Below, piece after piece: positions 18,114 through 58,314 of a stretch of 64,000 nt of DNA (position 1 is its first letter; each line of letters begins with the position of its first letter). This DNA comes from Pirellulales bacterium (GTDB lineage: Bacteria; Planctomycetota; Planctomycetia; Pirellulales; Pirellulaceae): NCBI GenBank assembly GCA_046349895.1, contig JAXMBJ010000006.1, positions 3,092,051 to 3,156,050 on the forward strand. Direction: 5' to 3'. The translations under genes were made by a program, and so were the position numbers. Under the pieces are notes generated by a model that saw only the letters and a list, made by a program, of their open reading frames with translations, did no database searches and had not been told where the DNA came from.

Positions 18114-19322
18114 GTGAGTGTTGGATCGGCTCCTGCGCGATGGCAATGTATGACCGGTTACCCTGCCCTCGAAACTCAACATGGTTCGGCGAACGAACAC
18201 CCTCGCGGAAATAGCTCGGGTGTACGCTCCGGCGTGACCGATTACGGCCACTGTTGGGTCTGGTTCCTGTCAGGCCAGACTGCGGAAACGGGGACCGTGC
18301 GCCATATTCCCATCCACGCCAGCCCTTTTGTGATCGGTCGCCGCAACGAAACAACCCTCTGTCTGCCCAGCCCCACCGTCTCAGGACTACACGCCGAGAT
18401 CGTCGAACTGGGCGATCAGCTCTATCTGCGAGATCTGAACAGCACCAACGGGACCTACGTCAACGGCCAACGGATTCGCGAGCCGATCGCACTGCAACCA
18501 GATGACCTGGTGCAGATCGCCAGTTTCGCGTTCCGGGTCAGCCGGCAATCGGCCGACGCCAGCGCCAAGACCGTGGCAGAGAACGTCTGCGACAAGGCAC
18601 TGGCTCTAGTTCAATTCGACAAGATGATGACCGAGCGAGCCGTCCTCCCCTTCTACCAGCCCATTATCGATCTGCAGTCGGGGACCACTATCGCTTTTGA
18701 AGTCCTGGGACGCAGCCCCTTCTTTGGCCTGGAAACCCCGGCCGCCATGTTCTACGCCGCCTCGCAGCTCGATCTGGAAGTTGAGCTGAGCAACATGTTT
18801 CGGTGGGAGGGGATCAGCCTCTGCGCGGCTGTCGCCCCCCAGATCCACCTCTTCGTCAACACGCACCCGGCCGAAATGCAGAAAGAAGGCCTGGTGCAAT
18901 CGATGCGAGCCGTGCGGGAGGTGAGCCCCGAGCAGCCCATTACGCTGGAACTGCACGAAGCGGCCGTCACCGACGCTCCTGCCATCAGCCGCCTCCGCAA
19001 TGAACTGGCCGCCATCGACGTCAAACTGGCCTACGACGACTTCGGCGCCGGCCAGACACGCCTCGTCGAACTGATCGAAGTCCGACCCGACTACCTGAAG
19101 TTCGACATGAACTTGATCCGCGATATCGACCGGGCCGGCGAACAGCGTCAGCGAATGCTCGCCACCTTGGTTCAGATGACCCGCGAACTGGGAATCGCCG
19201 CTATCGCCGAAGGGGTCGAAACCCCAGGCGAAGCCGACACCTGCCGCCAGCTCGGCTTCGACCTCGGCCAAGGTTTCCATTTCGGCTGGCCCGCGCCCAT
19301 CACCTACCTCGCCCGACGCTAG
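18114..19322 (+). CDS. FHA domain-EAL domain protein (putative c-di-GMP phosphodiesterase)
   Basis: FHA: FVIGRRNETTLCL...SGLHAEI...NSTNGTYVNG. EAL domain: FEVLGR (EVL variant), DDFGAGQT, YLKFDMNLIRD, AEGVET, QGFHFGWP. GTG at 18114, or ATG at 18150. Confidence 0.8.
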   Translation: MSVGSAPARWQCMTGYPALETQHGSANEHPRGNSSGVRSGVTDYGHCWVWFLSGQTAETGTVRHIPIHASPFVIGRRNETTLCLPSPTVSGLHAEIVELGDQLYLRDLNSTNGTYVNGQRIREPIALQPDDLVQIASFAFRVSRQSADASAKTVAENVCDKALALVQFDKMMTERAVLPFYQPIIDLQSGTTIAFEVLGRSPFFGLETPAAMFYAASQLDLEVELSNMFRWEGISLCAAVAPQIHLFVNTHPAEMQKEGLVQSMRAVREVSPEQPITLELHEAAVTDAPAISRLRNELAAIDVKLAYDDFGAGQTRLVELIEVRPDYLKFDMNLIRDIDRAGEQRQRMLATLVQMTRELGIAAIAEGVETPGEADTCRQLGFDLGQGFHFGWPAPITYLARR

Positions 19323-19337
19323 ACGACGCCTCTTCCT

Positions 19338-19702
19338 CCCTTGTGGTGCGGGCGTCTCGCCTGCCTCGCGTCTCGCCTGCCTCCGCGCCTCCGCGTCTCT
19401 ACTCCTCCCTTGTGGTGCGGGCGTCTCGCCTGCCTCCGCGTCTCCGCGTCTCTCTTCCTCCCTTGTGGTGCGGGCGTCTCGCCTGCCTCGCGTCTCTCTT
19501 CCTCCTCCTCCTGCTCCTTTCTATGCCCCTTTCCGAAGCTCCTCTTTCTTCAGTTGCCAGACAACTTCTGGCCAGGAGAATCCCCCAACAGCTGCCAGAT
19601 CCAGGCAGGCGGGACGCCTGCACCACAATACAAAGGCAGGCGGGACCCCTGCACCACAATACAAAGGCAGGCGGGACGCCTGCACCACAATGTGTGGGCA
19701 GG
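19338..19702. repeat. Cluster of palindromic GGCAGGCGGGACGCCYGCACCACAA-type repeats: three copies in one orientation (19338-19500), then three tandem 31-bp copies in the opposite orientation (19614-19706)
   Basis: Direct reading of the sequence. Each unit holds a short hairpin (CAGGCG-GGA-CGCCTG). The same unit recurs at 56201-56228 and 57348-57512. Located between convergent genes. Confidence 0.8.
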
Positions 19703-19706
19703 GAGA

Positions 19707-21068
19707 TCAATCGAGCGATTTGATCTGGATATTGCGGAATTCGACCGGGTCGTTGTGACCGGCCAGACCGAAGTGGCCGCGAGTCCGATCCTTGCCAGGG
19801 TGAGGCGAATTGGCCATGTACTGATCAATCTTCGACAGATCGGTTTTGAGGATGACCGTACCGTTGAGCTCCACCTGGATCGTCGAACCCTTGACGGTCA
19901 CTTCCTGGTAATTCCATTCGCCGGTCGGACGGAGGTAACCTCGAGCGGCGGCGGCCATGCCATACGCCGAACCGTGGTACTGGCGCGCGTCAAGCTCTTT
20001 GTAGTTGGGATGATCATTGTCCAGAATCTGGAGCTCGCACATCCCTACATAAGCCGTATCGCCTTGGCCGGGATACCGAATGGCCAAGCCGTTATTGCCT
20101 GAAGGCGGGAGCTTGAATTCGAACTTCACCACGAAGTCGCCGTATTCGCCGTCGGTGTAAATCGTCCCGCCCTTGCCCGGCTTGCAGCGCAAAGCCCCGT
20201 CGTTGATTTCGTATTCGTCGACGGGCCCTTTCCAGCCCTTCAGCCCACTCCCGTCAAACAGCTTCTGAAAGCCTTCGGTGGTGATCCCCGCCAGAATCTG
20301 ATTGGCTTCTTCAGCGGGAATCTCACGGATGAAAATATTCCGCCAGCGAATCTCACCGCCGTGCGTCTGCAACTGGAACGGTCCGCGCGCCATCAGCGGT
20401 TGCGACCGATCCCAGAAGTTCTCCATCGGAGCGTTATCGACGACCAGCTTGCCGTTGAGCCACACACTGGTTCGAGCGCCGACCTGACGGATCCGAAACC
20501 GATTCCACTCACCAAACGGCTTGTCCGCCAGCTCGGACGGATCTTTTCCGGGCGCCCCGGGGCTGTTGTTCCACAAACCACCGGAACCCTTGTCAGCACC
20601 GATATCCCACTTGCCACCTTCCTTGCGCCAGTCCCAGATCTGGACTTGCGGGTTGGCCCGCAGATAAATGCCACTGTCGGCCAGCGGGACGGTCTTGTAG
20701 TCAATCCACAGCTCATAGTCGCCGTAATCGGCGTCGGTCGTCAAATAGACTCCATCACCGTCATTCACCAGCTCGCCATTCTCCACGCTCCAGTGGCGCC
20801 GCATGTCCTCGTCGTCCGCGGCCCGCTTGGCCTGCCGCTGCTGGTCGTTCATCGCCGCCAGCTCGCGCGGATCGAAATGCCCCATGCCGTGCCACCCCGT
20901 CAGGTCGCGGCCATTGAACAGAGCCCGAAACCCGGCCGGCGGCTGGTTGTTTTCCTGAGCCGCTGTGGATGAGACCAAGCACAGCCCCAAAGCGAGGATC
21001 CACAAAGGTCGCGACCCGCAGCGAGCGAGCGACCGACACAGGCTGATTGAATCTGAGCAGCTGGTCAT
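19707..21068 (-). CDS. secreted protein with two DUF1080 (3-keto-disaccharide hydrolase-like) domains
   Basis: Signal peptide PLWILALGLCLVSSTAAQE. Repeated blocks (NGELVNDGDGVYLTTDADYGDYEL... and GGTIYTDGEYGDFVVKFEFKLP...) are typical of DUF1080. ATG at 21068 verified. Confidence 0.75.
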   Translation of the reverse strand: MTSCSDSISLCRSLARCGSRPLWILALGLCLVSSTAAQENNQPPAGFRALFNGRDLTGWHGMGHFDPRELAAMNDQQRQAKRAADDEDMRRHWSVENGELVNDGDGVYLTTDADYGDYELWIDYKTVPLADSGIYLRANPQVQIWDWRKEGGKWDIGADKGSGGLWNNSPGAPGKDPSELADKPFGEWNRFRIRQVGARTSVWLNGKLVVDNAPMENFWDRSQPLMARGPFQLQTHGGEIRWRNIFIREIPAEEANQILAGITTEGFQKLFDGSGLKGWKGPVDEYEINDGALRCKPGKGGTIYTDGEYGDFVVKFEFKLPPSGNNGLAIRYPGQGDTAYVGMCELQILDNDHPNYKELDARQYHGSAYGMAAAARGYLRPTGEWNYQEVTVKGSTIQVELNGTVILKTDLSKIDQYMANSPHPGKDRTRGHFGLAGHNDPVEFRNIQIKSLD

Positions 21069-21130
21069 GAGCGTGTACTTTCTTTTCCAGAAGGCGGGAA
21101 TTCGATCAACGCGGTGGGCATGGCAGACAG

Positions 21131-21181
21131 TGATCGTTCGGACTGAGTGACCGTTCGGACTGAGTGACCGTTCGGACTGAG
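21131..21181. repeat. 3 tandem copies of a 17-bp unit TGACCGTTCGGACTGAG in the divergent promoter region
   Basis: Read directly: tgatcgttcggactgag, tgaccgttcggactgag, tgaccgttcggactgag. Confidence 0.7.
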
Positions 21182-21354
21182 CGATCGGCCGCCACGCCGG
21201 CGGGACCGACATTCTAGTGGATGGCCCACCCCGCCGCCACTGTCGACCGTAGCCGGGAAATAGCCGAACCGTTAGACTGCCCGATTGTCCTGAGGATGGA
21301 CCAACGGACACCATTTCGAGGAACTGGCCCCGAGCGGGCTCAGCCAAAACTCTC

Positions 21355-22668
21355 ATGCAGAAAGCACGTTCCGCCGCGTCTGACGACGACCGGCGACCGA
21401 CGCACGACCCCTACGCGGCCTGGCGACACCCCAGCTATCGAACCTTCCTGATCGGCAACTTCGCTTCCATCTGTGGCATGCAGATGCAGTCGACCGCCGT
21501 CGGCTGGGATATCTACAACCGGACCGAATCGAACATGGCCCTGGGCCTGGTCGGGCTGGCTCAATTCCTGCCCGTCGTCCTGCTGTGGCTCCCCGCCGGA
21601 TACGCCGCCGATCGCCTGCCGCGCAAATGGATCGTCATGGCCGCCATGGTCATCGTCGCCGCTTCGTCGCTGGCCCTCACCGCAATCTCACTCCACCACC
21701 TCGACTACCGCTGGATCTACCTGGCCCTGGCGACCGTCGGTGTGGCTCGAGCGTTCCAGCAGCCAGCCAAGGCATCCCTCCTGCCGCAGCTGGTCCCGGT
21801 CGAACAATTCGCGAGCGCCGTGACCTGGAACACCAGCGCCTTTCACCTGGCCACCGTCCTCGGACCTGGACTCGCCGGCTGGCTGATCGCCCGCACTCTG
21901 TCTCCTGTCACCGTTTACTTGATCGATGCGGCTTCGGCCGTCGTCTTCGCCGTGATGCTCGCCTGCACTCGCACACTCCCCGCGCCAAAGACCGACGCCG
22001 TGGAGCACGACCGCAGCTTTGTCGGCGGACTGACCTACCTCTGGTCAAATCCTGTCATCTTCGGCGCTATCTCGCTCGACATGTTCGCCGTACTGCTCGG
22101 CGGCGCCATCACGCTGCTCCCGGTCTACGCCGAAACAATCCTCCGCACCGGACCCGAAGGGCTCGGCTGGCTGAGAGCCGCACCGGGCTTCGGCGCGCTG
22201 ACCATGGCCCTGATCCTCGCTCACCTCCCACCCATCCGCCGGGCCGGCCAAGCCATGTTGTGGTCCATTGCCGGCTTCGGTCTGGCCACCATCGTCTTCG
22301 GGCTCTCCCAGAACCTGACCCTCTCACTGATCATGCTCTTCCTGACAGGCGCTCTGGATAACATCAGTGTCGTGATCCGACATACGCTGATCCAGACGCA
22401 AACTCCCGACGAACTCCGCGGCCGCGTCTCCGCCGTCAACGGGCTCTTCATCGGTGCTTCCAACGAACTGGGTGGCTTCGAATCGGGCGTGGTCGCCCAC
22501 TGGTTCGGACCCGTTTTCTCGGTCGTCAGCGGCGGGATCGGCACCATCCTGGTGGTCCTGGCCACCGCCGCGCAGATCCCCCAACTCCGACGCTACGAAC
22601 AGAGTTCAACACACAAGATCGACGGGGAAGCAGACGCAGAACCCAAGGCGGAACCCAAGCCAAAATAG
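21355..22668 (+). CDS. MFS transporter
   Basis: About 12 hydrophobic segments, MFS-like N-terminal motif region (LPAGYAADRLPRK), ATG verified. Confidence 0.8.
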   Translation: MQKARSAASDDDRRPTHDPYAAWRHPSYRTFLIGNFASICGMQMQSTAVGWDIYNRTESNMALGLVGLAQFLPVVLLWLPAGYAADRLPRKWIVMAAMVIVAASSLALTAISLHHLDYRWIYLALATVGVARAFQQPAKASLLPQLVPVEQFASAVTWNTSAFHLATVLGPGLAGWLIARTLSPVTVYLIDAASAVVFAVMLACTRTLPAPKTDAVEHDRSFVGGLTYLWSNPVIFGAISLDMFAVLLGGAITLLPVYAETILRTGPEGLGWLRAAPGFGALTMALILAHLPPIRRAGQAMLWSIAGFGLATIVFGLSQNLTLSLIMLFLTGALDNISVVIRHTLIQTQTPDELRGRVSAVNGLFIGASNELGGFESGVVAHWFGPVFSVVSGGIGTILVVLATAAQIPQLRRYEQSSTHKIDGEADAEPKAEPKPK

Positions 22669-38592: not shown

Positions 38593-40530
38593 TTAGGGGA
38601 TCAGGAAGACTCCTCCCAGAACGGCGGCGGTCTGAGCCTTCACGGCTCGCGGATGCCAGGGAAAGGCGGGGATCAGCCACGGAGCACAGTCGCCTGGCCG
38701 GTAGTAGCCCAGTACGTACTGGCATTCCTGCGGCGGATGGAGCCCGATGTTGTACGGCAGCAACAGGACGTTGCCGAAGAAGTGAGCTCCTGACAGGAAC
38801 GTCTGAGCCACGGGGCCCTGTGAGTGGCCATACCGTTCCAGCTGGACGTCTTCAAAGTACAGCGGCTTGTGGCACAGTGCCGAAGCGGTCCAAGTAAAGG
38901 TCGACGGAGTCCAGTGACGACCGGCATAGGTTTCTTCCGGCAACTGGCAGTCGTTGGGAATCCGCCACCAGCCCGACAGGAAGCACCGATCGTCGGTACC
39001 AATTTCCCGCGCGGCGACACGCACCGACTCGCCTTTTTCCGGCTGAATCACCAGATAGCCGTTGGTGTAGTCCAGCAGACGCCCTTGGGCCAACACCTTG
39101 CCGTTGCGGTCCTTCCAGACCCGCGACGGGATTTTGGCCAGCTGCTCGTCACGGCCCTTCAATACCTCTTCCAGATCCTTGCCCTCCGTCACCAGCAACG
39201 GTGAGACGTCGATCGAGATATTGGCGATCGAAAAGTCAATCAGTTCCTGACGGGTCGTCTGACAGTTTTTGCTGTCGGTCGCGCAATCGGCACCGTTGTA
39301 CTCCGATGCTTTCGCCCGCAAAGCCTCATCCTCTTCCGGACTCAACAACTCGCCTCGCGACTCGGCCTCCAGCTCGCTCTCTGCACGGCTCTCCGGTTGG
39401 CTCTCTGGCTTGCTCTCTACCTCGTCCTCCATAAACCCTTCCCGGGCCTCGACCTTCTGATCTCCGGACGAAGACGGCTCGGGCTGAGTGGTTGAGCCGG
39501 GTCCTTCAGCACGTGGGATTTCGCGCGGTGGCGTCTGGCCCGATCGCGGCGGGGTCTTGCCGAACGTGTCGTCCAACGTTTCGTTACCCGGCGACGGAAA
39601 CTCGGGGAGGTCCGGGACCGAACCGCCTGGAGTCTGCTCCGGATCGATCTGCACTCCCCGTGTCGTCGGCACTCCCCGTGTCGTCGGCACTGGCACGGTG
39701 CGCGGCGGAGCGGGAGGCTGAACGATCGGGTTCTGCACGGCCGGGCGGGTCTTCAGAATCGAAGGCACCGGCGCTCGTCGCTCCAACGCCTCCGACAACT
39801 CGGCTTCCGTCGGAAGTTCATCCGACGAGCTTTCGAGGAGCTTCGGGGCGGGGGGCTGAGGGATGTCCAGCGGTGCAGTCGCCTGGTTGCCAGCCGCGGC
39901 CGACAACCCGTCATCGCCAAACGGATTGGTAGGTTCGGTGTGCTGCACACGATCGATTGATTCGGCGGTTGGCAACTCGCGAGCGTCGGCAGTGATCGCC
40001 TGAGGCTGCGGACTGAGCTCAGCCAGCGTCGGCTCACCAGAAGCCGGCAGCAAGCGAGGACGGACGCTGCGACGAGCTGATCCGACAGCCGGCGAATCGA
40101 CCGTGGGTGCTTCGAGTGAGAGCGATTCGACTGAGGTAGCTGCTGAATCGCTCGGCTCGGCGGACACCGGAGCATGATGAGCGGCAGGGGTGACCTGGAG
40201 CGTCCGGCGGCCGGTCGCTTGAGCCTTCGCGGCGCCAGGCCGTCGCCAGTCGAGCTCGGTCGACGTGTTGGCTGGTGCTGCGGCACGTTGCGCCCAATTG
40301 CGGGTGGCCGGTGGAGCTGCCTGCAGCTCGACAGTGGCGCCACCCATCAAACACCAGCCGAACATCCAGGCCAGTGAAGCCGGGGCCAGCAGATCGGCGA
40401 CCAGCTGCGCACCACGGCTAGCAGGCGCCGCGCCGTAGAGCAGCGAGCTGGCAGGCCGCAGATCAGCCTGGCTCGTTGCCGGGAAACTCAGGGCTGTAAT
40501 TGGGGGCTTCGTGCGTGATCGAAATGTCAT
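38593..40530 (-). CDS. hypothetical protein with Pro-rich central region and Cys-containing C-terminal domain
   Basis: ATG at 40530 with GAGGGAGAA RBS. Overlaps the guaB 3' end by 68 nt. In-frame 18-nt tandem duplication (VPTTRG x2). Confidence 0.45.
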
Positions 40531-42080: not shown

Positions 42081-42431
42081 GGAGGTCGCACGTACCTCCA
42101 TCGAGGTCGCACCTACCTCCATCGAGGTCGCACGTACCTCCACGGAGGTCGCACGTACCTCCGCGAAGCTGCTAGCACCTGCAGAAACGCGTCGGCTGGC
42201 GGAATTGCCGCAATTCGGCCCCACCGATCGAACCAAGCCTCCATCGAGGTCGCACGTACCTCCACGGAGGTCGCACGTACCTCCGAGCGATGCTAGCAGC
42301 TGGGAAGTCGCACCTACCTCTCGCACTCGGTCAAGTGAGCTGCAAAGGTTGAGCAAGGGCGATAGGTAGGTGCGACCTCCCAGTCGGTCAAGTGAGCTGC
42401 AAAGGTTGAGCAAGGGCGATAGGTAGGTGCG
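42081..42431. repeat. second hairpin-repeat family: tandem 21-bp GGAGGTCGCACGTACCTCCAT units (4+2 copies), inverted copies, and a 50-bp direct duplication
   Basis: Read directly. GGAGGT...ACCTCC forms a 6-bp stem. 50-bp repeat at about 42326-42375 and 42383-42431 (TCGGTCAAGTGAGCTGCAAAGGTTGAGCAAGGGCGATAGGTAGGTGCGA). Confidence 0.8.
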
Positions 42432-42445
42432 AATTCTCGGTGGGA

Positions 42446-55698: not shown

Positions 55699-56190
55699 TC
55701 AGGCCAAATTCTGCCCGACGGGGGTGGCGTTGTTGAGCAGTATCTCCCGGACGCTGCTCCGAATCGTCTGGCAGTAGTCGTCGAGCTTCAGATCGTCCTG
55801 GCTCATCCCGAAAGAACCTTCAATCTCCTCAGCGACCATTTCCAGGCCGATCATGAAGTAGGCCAGCATCGCTTCAGCCGGGATCGACCAGTAGGCGAAG
55901 TTATCCAGCATGGCCCAGGGCAAGGTCAGCAGGTAGATGGCGATCGATTGGCGGATGAACCAGCGATACGAGACCGATATCGGCGACTTCTGCACGCGTT
56001 CGCAGGCCCCGCAGATCTGCATCAGCGACGCGGCATGGGGATCCAGAAACAGCAACTCGAATCCCCCCAGCTGCTCGGCTCGCCTCCATTGCTCCAGCTG
56101 ACCGTAAATCCGGGCCGACACGTAGGCGGGCACATGAGCCGGGCGATCGGTTACCTGTTTGAATCCCGGCAGGGACTGCAGATGCGATTC
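55699..56190 (-). pseudogene. bestrophin/UPF0187 (YneE-like) channel gene remnant: only the C-terminal about 160 aa are present
   Basis: ICGACERVQKSPISVSYRW...YFMIGLEMVAEEIEGSFG matches E. coli YneE GCERIAYTPIPFAY...LAEELEDPFG (recalled from memory). The upstream part of the ORF is encoded by the CT-rich microsatellite and a palindromic repeat. Confidence 0.5.
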
Positions 56191-56200
56191 CCCCCGCAAT

Positions 56201-56400
56201 TGTGGTGCGGGCGTCTCGCCTGCCTCTCTGCCCCCTCTGCCTCTCTCTGCGCCTCTGCGCCTCTGCGCCTCTGCGCCTCTCTCTGCCTCTCTCTGCCTCT
56301 CTCTGCCTCTCTCTGCCTCTCTCTGCCTCTCTGCCTCTCTCTGCCTCTCTGCCTCTCTGCGCCCTCTGCTTCTCTGCGTTGAAACCTCCGCCTTCTCTTG
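56201..56400. repeat. single palindromic-repeat unit (56201-56228) followed by a CT-rich microsatellite (GCCTCTCT/GCGCCTCT units)
   Basis: Read directly. The microsatellite is in-frame on the minus strand as REAERQ repeats. Confidence 0.8.
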
Positions 56401-56456
56401 TGCCCCCTGCGTTGAAAAATTCTTCTCTGCGAAGCCGTTGTTGTGCGCCGTTCCCA

Positions 56457-57167
56457 TCACGAACAAATCCAGATCGCCAGGCGCACGATCACCGGCACGT
56501 AGAATGGCATGAGGAGCACGAGCCAACCGACGACGGCGAGTATATCGGCATTTGAGGGTTCGTTGATCCGCGGACGCAGCCACCCCAGAGAGACCCCTGT
56601 CATGCGACCCAGGTGTTCGGGGAACCAGATACAAGCCAGCGGCAACAGCAGACCAAGAATCGCCCGATACTTGCGGTGAGGTCGGAGGTGAGAATTCAGC
56701 ACCAGGTAGACAATGACCAGAGCGACGAGCCCCGAGGCCAGCTTCGACCGGGTCACCCGCCGGAATAGCTCCAGGCGCCGCGATGCGGCCATCTCAGCCG
56801 CCATCGCCACGGCCAGCTGCCGTACGTTCGGCGTTCCCGTCCGGTAGGCGACCAACTGAGCCAGCTGGCCCGACTCCAGCCACACTCCGCCACATCGGCC
56901 GCACTTTTTGACCGTGATTCCCGAGTCATAAGCGTAGTTGTTCTGGCGCAGCTCAGCAGCACACTTGGGACACTCGATGGCTTCCGACCGCAACCGGTCG
57001 GGCGTTACGGAAAGCCGTCCGGTTATCTCCGACGGGACCGATGAGCAGACAACCGTCCCTAACTCCAGATCGTCCAGCCACAGTCCGTGACAGACTTCAC
57101 AACGGTCGAGCTCCACCCCCGCCACGACCTCGCGCGACAAATCGATCTGGCAATGAGGGCACTTCAT
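56457..57167 (-). CDS. double zinc-ribbon protein with C-terminal TM helices (possibly the detached N-terminal part of the disrupted bestrophin gene)
   Basis: CPHC...CEVCHGLWLD and CPKC...CGRCGGVWLE zinc ribbons, then 3 TM helices. ATG verified. Reading frame differs from the bestrophin remnant. Confidence 0.5.
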   Translation of the reverse strand: MKCPHCQIDLSREVVAGVELDRCEVCHGLWLDDLELGTVVCSSVPSEITGRLSVTPDRLRSEAIECPKCAAELRQNNYAYDSGITVKKCGRCGGVWLESGQLAQLVAYRTGTPNVRQLAVAMAAEMAASRRLELFRRVTRSKLASGLVALVIVYLVLNSHLRPHRKYRAILGLLLPLACIWFPEHLGRMTGVSLGWLRPRINEPSNADILAVVGWLVLLMPFYVPVIVRLAIWICS

Positions 57168-57347: not shown

Positions 57348-57512
57348 GCAGTTCCAGGCAGGCGGGACGCCTGCACCACAATGGAACCGAGGCAGGCGGG
57401 ACGCCCGCACCACAATGGAACCGAGGCAGGCGGGACGCCCGCACCACAATGGAACCGAGGCAGGCGGGACGCCCGCACCACAATTGATTTCAGGCAGGCG
57501 GGACGCCCGCAC
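57348..57512. repeat. five tandem 34-bp copies of GGCAGGCGGGACGCCCGCACCACAATGGAACCGA directly upstream of the GNAT start codon
   Basis: Read directly. The last copy ends 17 nt before the ATG at 57529. Confidence 0.85.
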
Positions 57513-57528
57513 CACAATGGAACTGATT

Positions 57529-58314
57529 ATGAATCGACCGGTAGACGTCCAGATCGACGTGACGAGGGCTCTGAACGAGCAGCTGGTCGGCCTGCGGACC
57601 CGGTACCGCGACGAAGCACATACTCAGATCGTCCACGATTCGCTGCACAATCGACCCGGCTGGACCGAAGGCTACCTGCTGCAGATCGATGGCCATCCCG
57701 CCGGACTCGCTTCGATCGCCATCGCCGGACCCTGGCAGGATCGACCGACCATCTACGAATACTATCTGCTCCCTGAGTTCCGTCAGCATGCATTTGCCGT
57801 CTTCGAGCAGTTCCAACGAGTCAGCGGCGGACGGTTTTTCGAGGTGCAGACCAGCGACGAGCTGCTGGCGGTCATGCTCCATACATACGGCCACCAGATC
57901 GCCACGGAGAAGATCGTCTTTCGCGATCTGCTGACCACGCATCACACGGTTCCAGGAGCCAAGCTGGTGTGGGAGACCGATCGACCGCTGATTGAACAGG
58001 CGATGCACGAACGACGCGGCGGGGGCGAATGGAAACTCACGCTGCACGCACAGCCGGTCGGCAAAGGGGGACTGCTGTTCCACTACAACCCGCCCTATGG
58101 CGACATCTGGATGGAGATCGAGGAACCCTACCGCCGGCAAGGCTTAGGAAGCTACCTGGTGCAGGAGATCAAGCAGATCGCCTATCAGCTCGGCGCAATT
58201 CCGGCCGCTCGGTGCAATTTCGACAACATCGCGTCGCGGCGGACTCTGCAACGAGCGGGGTTCGTGCCATACGCATCTATTCTGCTGGGCGAGGTCGCTG
58301 CCAGCTCGGCTTAA
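57529..58314 (+). CDS. GNAT-family N-acetyltransferase
   Basis: C-terminal acetyl-CoA motif RRQGLGSYLV; ATG at 57529 verified. Confidence 0.7.
   Translation: MNRPVDVQIDVTRALNEQLVGLRTRYRDEAHTQIVHDSLHNRPGWTEGYLLQIDGHPAGLASIAIAGPWQDRPTIYEYYLLPEFRQHAFAVFEQFQRVSGGRFFEVQTSDELLAVMLHTYGHQIATEKIVFRDLLTTHHTVPGAKLVWETDRPLIEQAMHERRGGGEWKLTLHAQPVGKGGLLFHYNPPYGDIWMEIEEPYRRQGLGSYLVQEIKQIAYQLGAIPAARCNFDNIASRRTLQRAGFVPYASILLGEVAASSA

Follow-up and report, generated by a model that had tools for sequence, protein, structure and literature searches.

A GTGG-headed hairpin repeat, probably of the REP type, is widespread in Planctomycetota and linked to one clade of REP-associated tyrosine transposases

The window (the whole 64-kb stretch of DNA that was analysed) contains twelve copies of a 25-nt hairpin repeat, which belongs to a previously uncatalogued repeat family that is widespread in the Planctomycetota. 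The repeat has a well-defined anatomy and a wide distribution, shows selection for pairing on one of its strands and is linked to one particular clade of RAYT genes. We consider it highly probable (roughly 85%) that the units are non-autonomous REP elements, which belong to the GTAG-tagged superfamily, carry a GTGG head and are moved by a RAYT that is encoded elsewhere. A full-text literature search for the core sequence of the unit returned no paper.

The unit is described by GGCAGGCG(G/A)GACGCC(T/C)GCACCACAA. A scan of the window with the query GGCAGGCGGGACGCCYGCACCACAA, in which at most 3 mismatches were allowed, yielded 12 copies against 0 expected; none of the 100 dinucleotide-preserving shuffles of the window that served as control gave any match. 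No further degenerate units were found in the window when up to 6 mismatches were accepted. An earlier note on this DNA, made from the letters alone, had described the repeat as dispersed over several places in both orientations, and the scan bears this out. The copies and their immediate surroundings are the following (coordinates of the window).

18114-19322, plus strand: EAL/FHA gene, the left flank of the inverted arrays
19341-19365, minus strand: REP unit L1, for which the plus strand reads TTGTGGTGCGGGCGTCTCGCCTGCC; 18 nt past the stop codon of the EAL/FHA gene
19352-19383, no strand assigned: half-unit GCGTCTCGCCTGCCTC, present twice, a repeat of the 3' half of L1
19410-19434, minus strand: REP unit L2, same sequence as L1
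19463-19487, minus strand: REP unit L3, same sequence as L1
19488-19603, no strand assigned: pyrimidine-rich spacer of 116 nt that separates the inverted arrays
19604-19628, plus strand: REP unit R1, GGCAGGCGGGACGCCTGCACCACAA, followed by the linker TACAAA
19635-19659, plus strand: REP unit R2, with one stem mismatch (GACCCC for GACGCC)
19666-19690, plus strand: REP unit R3; 16 nt separate it from the stop of the DUF1080-type gene
19707-21356, minus strand: 3-keto-disaccharide hydrolase (DUF1080) gene, the right flank of the inverted arrays
56200-56224, minus strand: single REP unit, abutting a CT-rich microsatellite at 56220-56377
57357-57517, plus strand: five tandem REP units with a 34-bp period (TRF: 4.9 copies, 93% matches)

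The region around 19.3-19.7 kb is indeed, as had been proposed, an inverted pair of arrays between convergent genes, with the EAL/FHA gene (plus strand) on one side and the DUF1080 gene (minus strand) on the other. Three copies in one orientation start at 19341, 19410 and 19463, i.e. at the spacings of 69 and 53 bp given before. The 31-bp period of the three copies in the opposite orientation also stands, but these are not perfect (TRF reports 96% matches, copy 2 carries GACCCC and the third linker differs), and the array ends 16 nt before the DUF1080 stop codon instead of at the codon itself. Both other sites are present as well, although their limits had to be moved, from 56201-56228 to 56200-56224 and from 57348-57512 to 57357-57517. 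In the minus-orientation units, where the plus strand reads TTGTGGTGCGGGCGTCTCGCCTGCC, it is the plus strand that bears the head and folds. The feature as a whole has the heads-out polarity of the doublet that is common in other genomes, with each arm and its linker triplicated.

The five-copy array is placed between the divergent genes for a Zn-ribbon protein (56457-57167, minus strand) and a GNAT protein (57517-58314, plus strand), and its linkers are TGGAACCGA (three times), TTGATTTCA and TGGAACTGA. The linkers measure 6-9 nt and are identical or nearly so within each of the tandem arrays, which implies growth of both arrays through local duplication. Such growth would have come about by slippage or unequal exchange at the hairpins, and the duplication of the half-unit GCGTCTCGCCTGCCTC looks like slippage at a hairpin. 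A CRISPR array was rejected on the basis of the same linkers, with their length of 6-9 nt and their identity within an array. The match to Rfam family CRISPR-DR47 is at chance level (14.3 bits versus a gathering score of 39) and lies outside the units; in the window no Rfam family reached its gathering score, and the region holds two chance-level matches.

Next to the single unit at 56200-56224, a bestrophin-like ORF (55699-56634, minus strand) matches only positions 153-288 of the 288-position Pfam profile Bestrophin_2, the N-terminal half being absent. The truncated homology begins about 50 nt from the unit, which suggests a deletion or rearrangement at the REP site. The CT-rich microsatellite that follows the unit (CTCTGCCT-type, 158 bp) looks as if it was seeded from the 3' end of the unit. 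At the five-copy array, the longest ORF of the GNAT acetyltransferase gene has its ATG at 57415, inside the array. The true start of the gene is at 57415, 57517 or 57529, where the ATG at 57517 is formed by the junction between the CACAA of the last unit and the TGG that follows, and a REP-encoded N-terminal extension of the protein could result.

Three further features of the window were observed. A small palindrome that is unrelated to the REP unit, GAGGTCGCACGTACCTCC, occurs six times at 42082-42432 within a 501-bp intergenic region, as 21-bp tandem repeats (x3.9 and x2.2); in addition, two 57-bp tandem copies contain its reverse complement. The palindrome was not found in the rest of the window or in any of the fetched loci, and may represent an operator-like site array. 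A region of about 1.26 kb (39204-40463) lacks a convincing ORF as judged by codon-position G+C, has neither a tRNA nor a match in Rfam, and includes a perfect 18-bp tandem repeat (x2.3) at 39651-39691. Finally, the 5' part of the DUF1080-type ORF contains a 17-bp tandem repeat, AGTGACCGTTCGGACTG, at 21129-21181 (x3.1, 97% matches). As a 17-bp period does not preserve the reading frame, this ORF may have its true start downstream of the repeat.

The folding strand of the unit consists of an unpaired 5'-TTGTGG head, a stem of 7-8 bp and a loop of 3 nt, and can be written as 5'-TTGTGG-T-GCRGGCG-TCY-CGCCTGC or as 5'-TTGTGG-TGCRGGCG-TCY-CGCCTGCA. The stem, for which 6 bp had been proposed, comprises 7 bp (GCAGGCG/CGCCTGC), or 8 bp where the first base is T. 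When folded as DNA the two strands reach -8.5 and -8.7 kcal/mol (z about -4), and none of 200 shuffles folded as well as the 25-nt unit does at -8.5 kcal/mol. The tail ACCACAA, which on the folding strand is the head TTGTGGT, is nearly invariant (180 of 188 copies). The head of the unit is thus GTGG, a variant of GTAG.

Which of the strands folds was addressed with pairing statistics on 169 metagenome units, retrieved by a search in which the variable stem positions were left free. Stem pair 5-13 is G-C in 134 units and C-G in 31, with 4 non-pairs, while stem pair 3-15 is A-T in 67, G-C in 48, A.C in 47 and G.T in a single unit. The changes in the stem are compensatory, and only one intermediate is frequent (47 versus 1): what reads as A.C on the GGCAGG strand is a G.T wobble on its complement, so that pairing is maintained on the TTGTGG strand. 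On that strand the C variant keeps all 7 pairs by means of the wobble (-6.5 kcal/mol), whereas the opposite strand has an internal A.C mismatch (-4.4 kcal/mol). The asymmetry favours folding of the head-bearing single strand. A tRNA-like minihelix, conceivable for the GGCAGG strand with its 7-bp acceptor-like stem followed by ACCA, was rejected because pairing is selected on the opposite strand; in addition, the units are oriented randomly with respect to transcription, and ARAGORN and Rfam find nothing.

The distribution of the family was determined with a genome census. With one genome per species, copies of the exact core were found at at least 100 loci from at least 38 assemblies other than that of the window, labelled as Pirellulales, Gemmataceae, Isosphaeraceae, Planctomycetaceae, Thermoguttaceae, Tepidisphaerales and others. 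Almost all of these belong to the Planctomycetota, where the taxon labels of MAGs are the depositors' own and four short contigs in bins of other phyla may be mis-binned. A scan of metagenomes in which the variable stem positions were left open added at least 120 further contigs with the unit. The listed loci amount to 418 units in 220 loci, with G+C contents from 54 to 73%, and a single MAG (CAWJKP01) accounts for at least 18 separate 8-kb blocks. Among the 2.9 million viral contigs that were scanned none contained the unit, on account of which a phage or plasmid vector was rejected.

With these numbers it is extremely improbable that the repeat is a local duplication or an assembly artefact limited to the window. 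Three separate sites in the window itself carry the core, as do more than 220 contigs that many projects assembled independently, long-read MAGs among them. An artefact would be in keeping with the public 1-kb contig of the region (L101), which ends inside the array, where assemblers break, and the identical linkers within each array do indicate that the arrays themselves grew locally.

The arrangement of the units in other genomes is dominated by inverted doublets. Among 166 adjacent pairs of units 128 are heads-out inverted dimers, 17 are heads-in and 21 are tandem, so that the same-orientation tandem arrangement seen in the window represents a minority elsewhere (21/166). Within the inverted doublets, which have their tails outward, there are often just 4-13 nt between the hairpins, and many doublets combine a GCAGGCG arm with a GCAGCCG arm. 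The sequences that flank the copies are unrelated to each other; in the flanks of 200 copies neither a direct duplication nor a common sequence was found. The term REP/MITE-like used in the earlier note is apt in its first part, considering the hairpin, the head, the inverted dimers and the RAYT linkage, but the strict MITE label does not fit, since the unit is a single 25-nt hairpin that lacks terminal inverted repeats with target-site duplications.

Some genomes carry additional sequences in association with the unit. Genome-specific composite repeats surround it in the MAGs ELA013 and DATKSN01. In the former (L011, L015, L021, L051, L054, L063, L071, L083) the spacer of the doublets is constant at 21 nt and the flanks are conserved over at least 20 nt, and in the latter (L003, L014, L045) a single unit is found at the tip of a 19-bp perfect palindrome. 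An extra motif about 10 nt past ACCACAA was observed in CAWJKP01 (L001, L016, L020, L025, L031, L048, L058 and others) and CAWGMT01 (L053, L055, L089, L097). This motif, e.g. CAAGTTATT or TTGGCAAAGTTATT, is common to many copies within one genome, and may reflect either a mobile unit that is longer than the doublet or a target preference.

Crude gene calls place about 65% of 178 clusters outside genes; for these intergenic clusters the neighbouring genes are co-directional in 69 cases, convergent in 23 and divergent in 24. The location of the units leads to the question whether their primary function could be at the level of RNA, as terminators or 3'-end stabilisers, in which case the inverted arrays would form a bidirectional terminator for the convergent genes. 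Both arrays at 19.3-19.7 kb lie just past stop codons, and the two upstream genes would have the same strand of the unit in their transcripts. In the right array, read on the minus strand, a T-rich linker (CTTTGTATTG) comes after the hairpin, which gives 3 loose terminator-like sites versus 0.7 expected. The 384-nt spacer that separates the convergent genes can form a long interrupted hairpin from either of its strands, with -202 kcal/mol (z -13) for one and -198 kcal/mol (z -8.6) for the other. Nevertheless, we regard a primary role in RNA as unlikely. The orientation bias relative to genes that the earlier note had raised was absent, as single units between co-directional genes occur in both orientations (12 versus 11, p = 1.0). 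Moreover, divergent genes flank 24 clusters as well as the five-copy array at 57357-57517, and some units are located in frame within the ORF of a 1264-aa helicase. In the left array the hairpins are not followed by a T-run and gave no terminator-like match, a terminator needs neither the invariant 24-nt sequence nor the unpaired ACCACAA tail, and a transposase gene is flanked by the unit on both sides. Given the unbiased orientation and the units between divergent genes and inside genes, we treat an effect on transcripts as a side effect: the arrays may plausibly, in a secondary way, block or stabilise the transcripts of the flanking genes.

The helicase-like ORF mentioned above (L073, 3274-7068; 1264 aa) contains at least 6 units or remnants in frame, which encode peptides such as CGAGVPPA. 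The in-frame units parallel the REP-decorated DNA repair and helicase genes that have been reported for O. terrae.

The earlier suggestion that the units are the target of a RAYT-like transposase encoded elsewhere is supported by two contigs (L194 and L231) in which a RAYT gene is flanked by the unit. The first of these, a metagenome contig of 1110 bp, contains an ORF of 207 aa with 8 REP units around the gene, 5 downstream and 3 upstream; one unit ends at the base before the stop codon. The encoded protein scores 83.3 bits on the NCBIfam equivalog model NF047646 (REP-associated tyrosine transposase; cutoff 80) and 26 bits on Pfam Y1_Tnp (cutoff 23), and matches TnpA-REP (PDB 4ER8) with E = 2.5e-6. 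In the alignment with E. coli RayT the HUH motif (H118, H120), Tyr178 and Asn-Pro are invariant. An IS200 identity for the gene was rejected, the score being 18.8 bits (cutoff 55) versus 83.3 bits as REP-associated transposase. Likewise, IS200/IS605 elements were rejected for the repeat, as a Y1 gene is found neither in the window nor beside 219 of the 220 repeat loci.

The protein collection contains 6630 homologues of the L194 protein. Many of them are encoded on contigs of about 1 kb, which is to be expected if assemblies break in the flanking repeats. Four homologues, picked by protein similarity and contig size alone, are accompanied by the following repeats.

L231, 68% identity to L194: 3 + 4 REP units of the same family
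L232, 60% identity to L194: units with the tail CCCACAA, including a 9-copy tandem array of 64 bp
L233, 57% identity to L194: the same hairpins with the tail ACCACCA
L234, 54% identity to L194: canonical TTGTAG-headed REPs with unrelated stems

The tails of the repeats differ among these homologues, from which it follows that the repeat changes with the enzyme, and that the GTGG head grades into GTAG.

In L232 (1-3633) and L233 (1-3615) the RAYT gene occupies the same chromosomal position in two genomes, with the gene order Peptidase_M56, Penicillinase_R, RAYT, Isochorismatase and PALP. The neighbouring proteins are about 80% identical between the two, versus 56% for the RAYTs, and their flanking repeats have the tails CCCACAA and ACCACCA, respectively. 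The pattern suggests that enzyme and repeat either diverge together quickly or have been replaced at a fixed locus.

The linkage between RAYT and unit was seen in other genomes only. In the 64-kb window no Y1/HUH gene was found with regular expressions (HUH + Y..NP) or with tblastn and a panel of RAYTs. The regular expressions also found nothing in the first 100 loci, where tblastn with the RAYT panel detected only an unrelated Y1 gene with terminal repeats of its own. A RAYT gene in 1 of the 220 motif-selected loci, a small sample, fits a gene that is present in single copy.

Three further clades of RAYT or Y1 genes served as controls, and were found to carry other repeats and not the present REP unit. 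Members of the RB11751 clade (863 homologues) are flanked by genome-specific GTAG REPINs and those of the Oter_2468 clade by GTAGGGC-type REPs, and an rba2408-like Y1 gene in L030, located 1.6 kb from a unit, has 23-bp inverted repeats of its own; all three were rejected as cognate. A 'GVPPA' peptide in two Oter_2468 homologues proved to be native protein sequence and is not REP-derived. The RB11751 clade (R. baltica type; L104 2290-3230, L106 2410-3160) is highly conserved, with top matches of about 60% identity from Gemmataceae, Pirellulales and Planctomycetaceae. Like the system of L194, it is found in Planctomycetota and has the REPtron layout, with inverted REP pairs on both sides of the gene. 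It nevertheless represents another RAYT clade (tblastn: about 29% identity across 89 residues). The REPs beside its genes combine canonical GTAG heads with stems that vary by genome, and none of the present units was found there. With a separate clade that has its own GTAG REPINs, the Planctomycetota carry at least two distinct REP-RAYT systems.

The 24-nt core, unpaired bases included, is exact across 54-73% G+C and many orders. Such constancy could also be expected if the units were binding sites of a conserved host protein or a DNA-uptake signal, kept by selection, and if the linkage to the RAYT were incidental. A nucleoid or topology factor has been proposed as the binder of the BIMEs of E. 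coli. For the present family we consider such an origin very unlikely, as the tail varies with the adjacent RAYT (ACCACAA, ACCACCA and CCCACAA, with TTGTAG for the most distant homologue) and the near restriction of the wobble to one strand (47 versus 1) indicates a single-stranded form. Furthermore, the flanking sequences of the copies are unrelated, in-frame intragenic copies occur and no candidate protein is known.

The interpretation as REP elements is in agreement with what has been described for related repeats. GTAG-tagged REPs were reported in Opitutus terrae and in Planctomycetes (Di Nocera et al. 2013, PMC3733652), as hairpins with an unpaired 5' head, the single-stranded fold of which is recognised by Y1 transposases. 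According to the same study the REPs of O. terrae include GTGG heads, tail-to-tail dimers with spacers of 1-2 bp and in-frame intragenic copies. The sequence of the O. terrae repeat 'GTAG-19' was not read from DNA; using REP-encoded peptides of three reading frames that Additional file 3 of that paper lists (GTGVPPV, VARASRP, WHGRPAR, HGRDARAT, TGGTPVP), we reconstructed it as GTGG-CACGGGCG-TCC-CGCCCGTG. Both repeats stem from the PVC superphylum and have a GTGG head directly 5' of an 8-bp stem, an inner stem GGCG/CGCC and a loop TCC (GGA). They also share the tail-to-tail dimers with very short spacers and the in-frame intragenic copies, with peptides GTGVPPV in O. terrae and CGAGVPPA for the present unit. 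They differ in the outer stem, which is CACG/CGTG in GTAG-19 and TGCA/TGCA here. A conserved TT precedes the head of the present unit; the comparison covers the peptide-derived part of the O. terrae repeat, from the GTGG head onwards. The common head, stem length, inner stem and loop identify the present family as a close relative of GTAG-19.

Similarity to the REP/BIME elements of E. coli is found in the short, GC-rich and imperfect palindrome, the unpaired tetranucleotide head, the two subtypes that occur in inverted pairs and the Y1/HUH enzyme that is flanked by the repeats. The E. coli enzyme TnpA-REP (RayT; PDB 4ER8) has the HUH, Tyr and Asn-Pro residues in common with the L194 protein at 23% identity. 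The E. coli REP differs by its GTAG head and a longer, bulged stem, compared to the GTGG head, 3-nt loop and 7-8 bp stem of the present unit. In the REPIN-RAYT systems of Pseudomonas (Bertels and Rainey 2011, PMC3116915) inverted doublets are likewise the commonest form, and there as here RAYT genes are located among ordinary housekeeping genes, two of the present ones (L232 and L233) at a syntenic position. In contrast to those REPINs, the doublet spacers of the present family are often just 4-13 nt, and its core is common to many species-level genomes whereas REPINs are typically lineage-specific.

The general mechanism of REP and RAYT is established for E. coli and Pseudomonas, and can be extended to the clade of L194 by analogy. 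By comparison with E. coli TnpA-REP and the Pseudomonas REPINs, the RAYT would bind, cleave and move the REP units. The functional form would be single-stranded DNA of the TTGTGG strand, with its unpaired head, stem and loop. A RAYT of the HUH/Y1 type (about 207 aa), encoded elsewhere in the genome, would recognise the hairpin together with the head and would cut and rejoin the strand. In this way the units, mostly in the form of heads-out inverted doublets, would spread through intergenic DNA. In the window both arms of one such doublet, together with their linkers, would then have been triplicated between two convergent genes, while the second site would be a five-fold tandem expansion and the third a single unit.

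The 24-nt core is identical across many orders and is in this respect more conserved than is usual for REPs, which could reflect an added host function or horizontal spread. A tentative and rather doubtful possibility is that the REP-RAYT pair forms an old, largely vertical system across much of the Planctomycetota, in which the head went from GTAG to GTGG and the core remained constant across orders. If so, the system would be far more conserved than the proteobacterial REPINs and would imply a function at the level of the host beyond selfish spread, e.g. in genome structuring or transcript-end control. It would also mean that the RAYT and the tail of the repeat can co-diverge quickly at a fixed locus (L232 versus L233).

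The assignment provides a name and a cognate enzyme for a repeat at which assemblies of Planctomycetota genomes break and which leads to inflated ORF calls, and REP-encoded peptides such as CGAGVPPA turn up in predicted proteins. It explains the three odd intergenic regions of the window without invoking anything new. The TTGTGG-headed hairpin and the RAYT of 207 aa constitute a clean pair for asking how the head sets the specificity of a RAYT, for which the natural variants of the tail come already matched to diverged enzymes.
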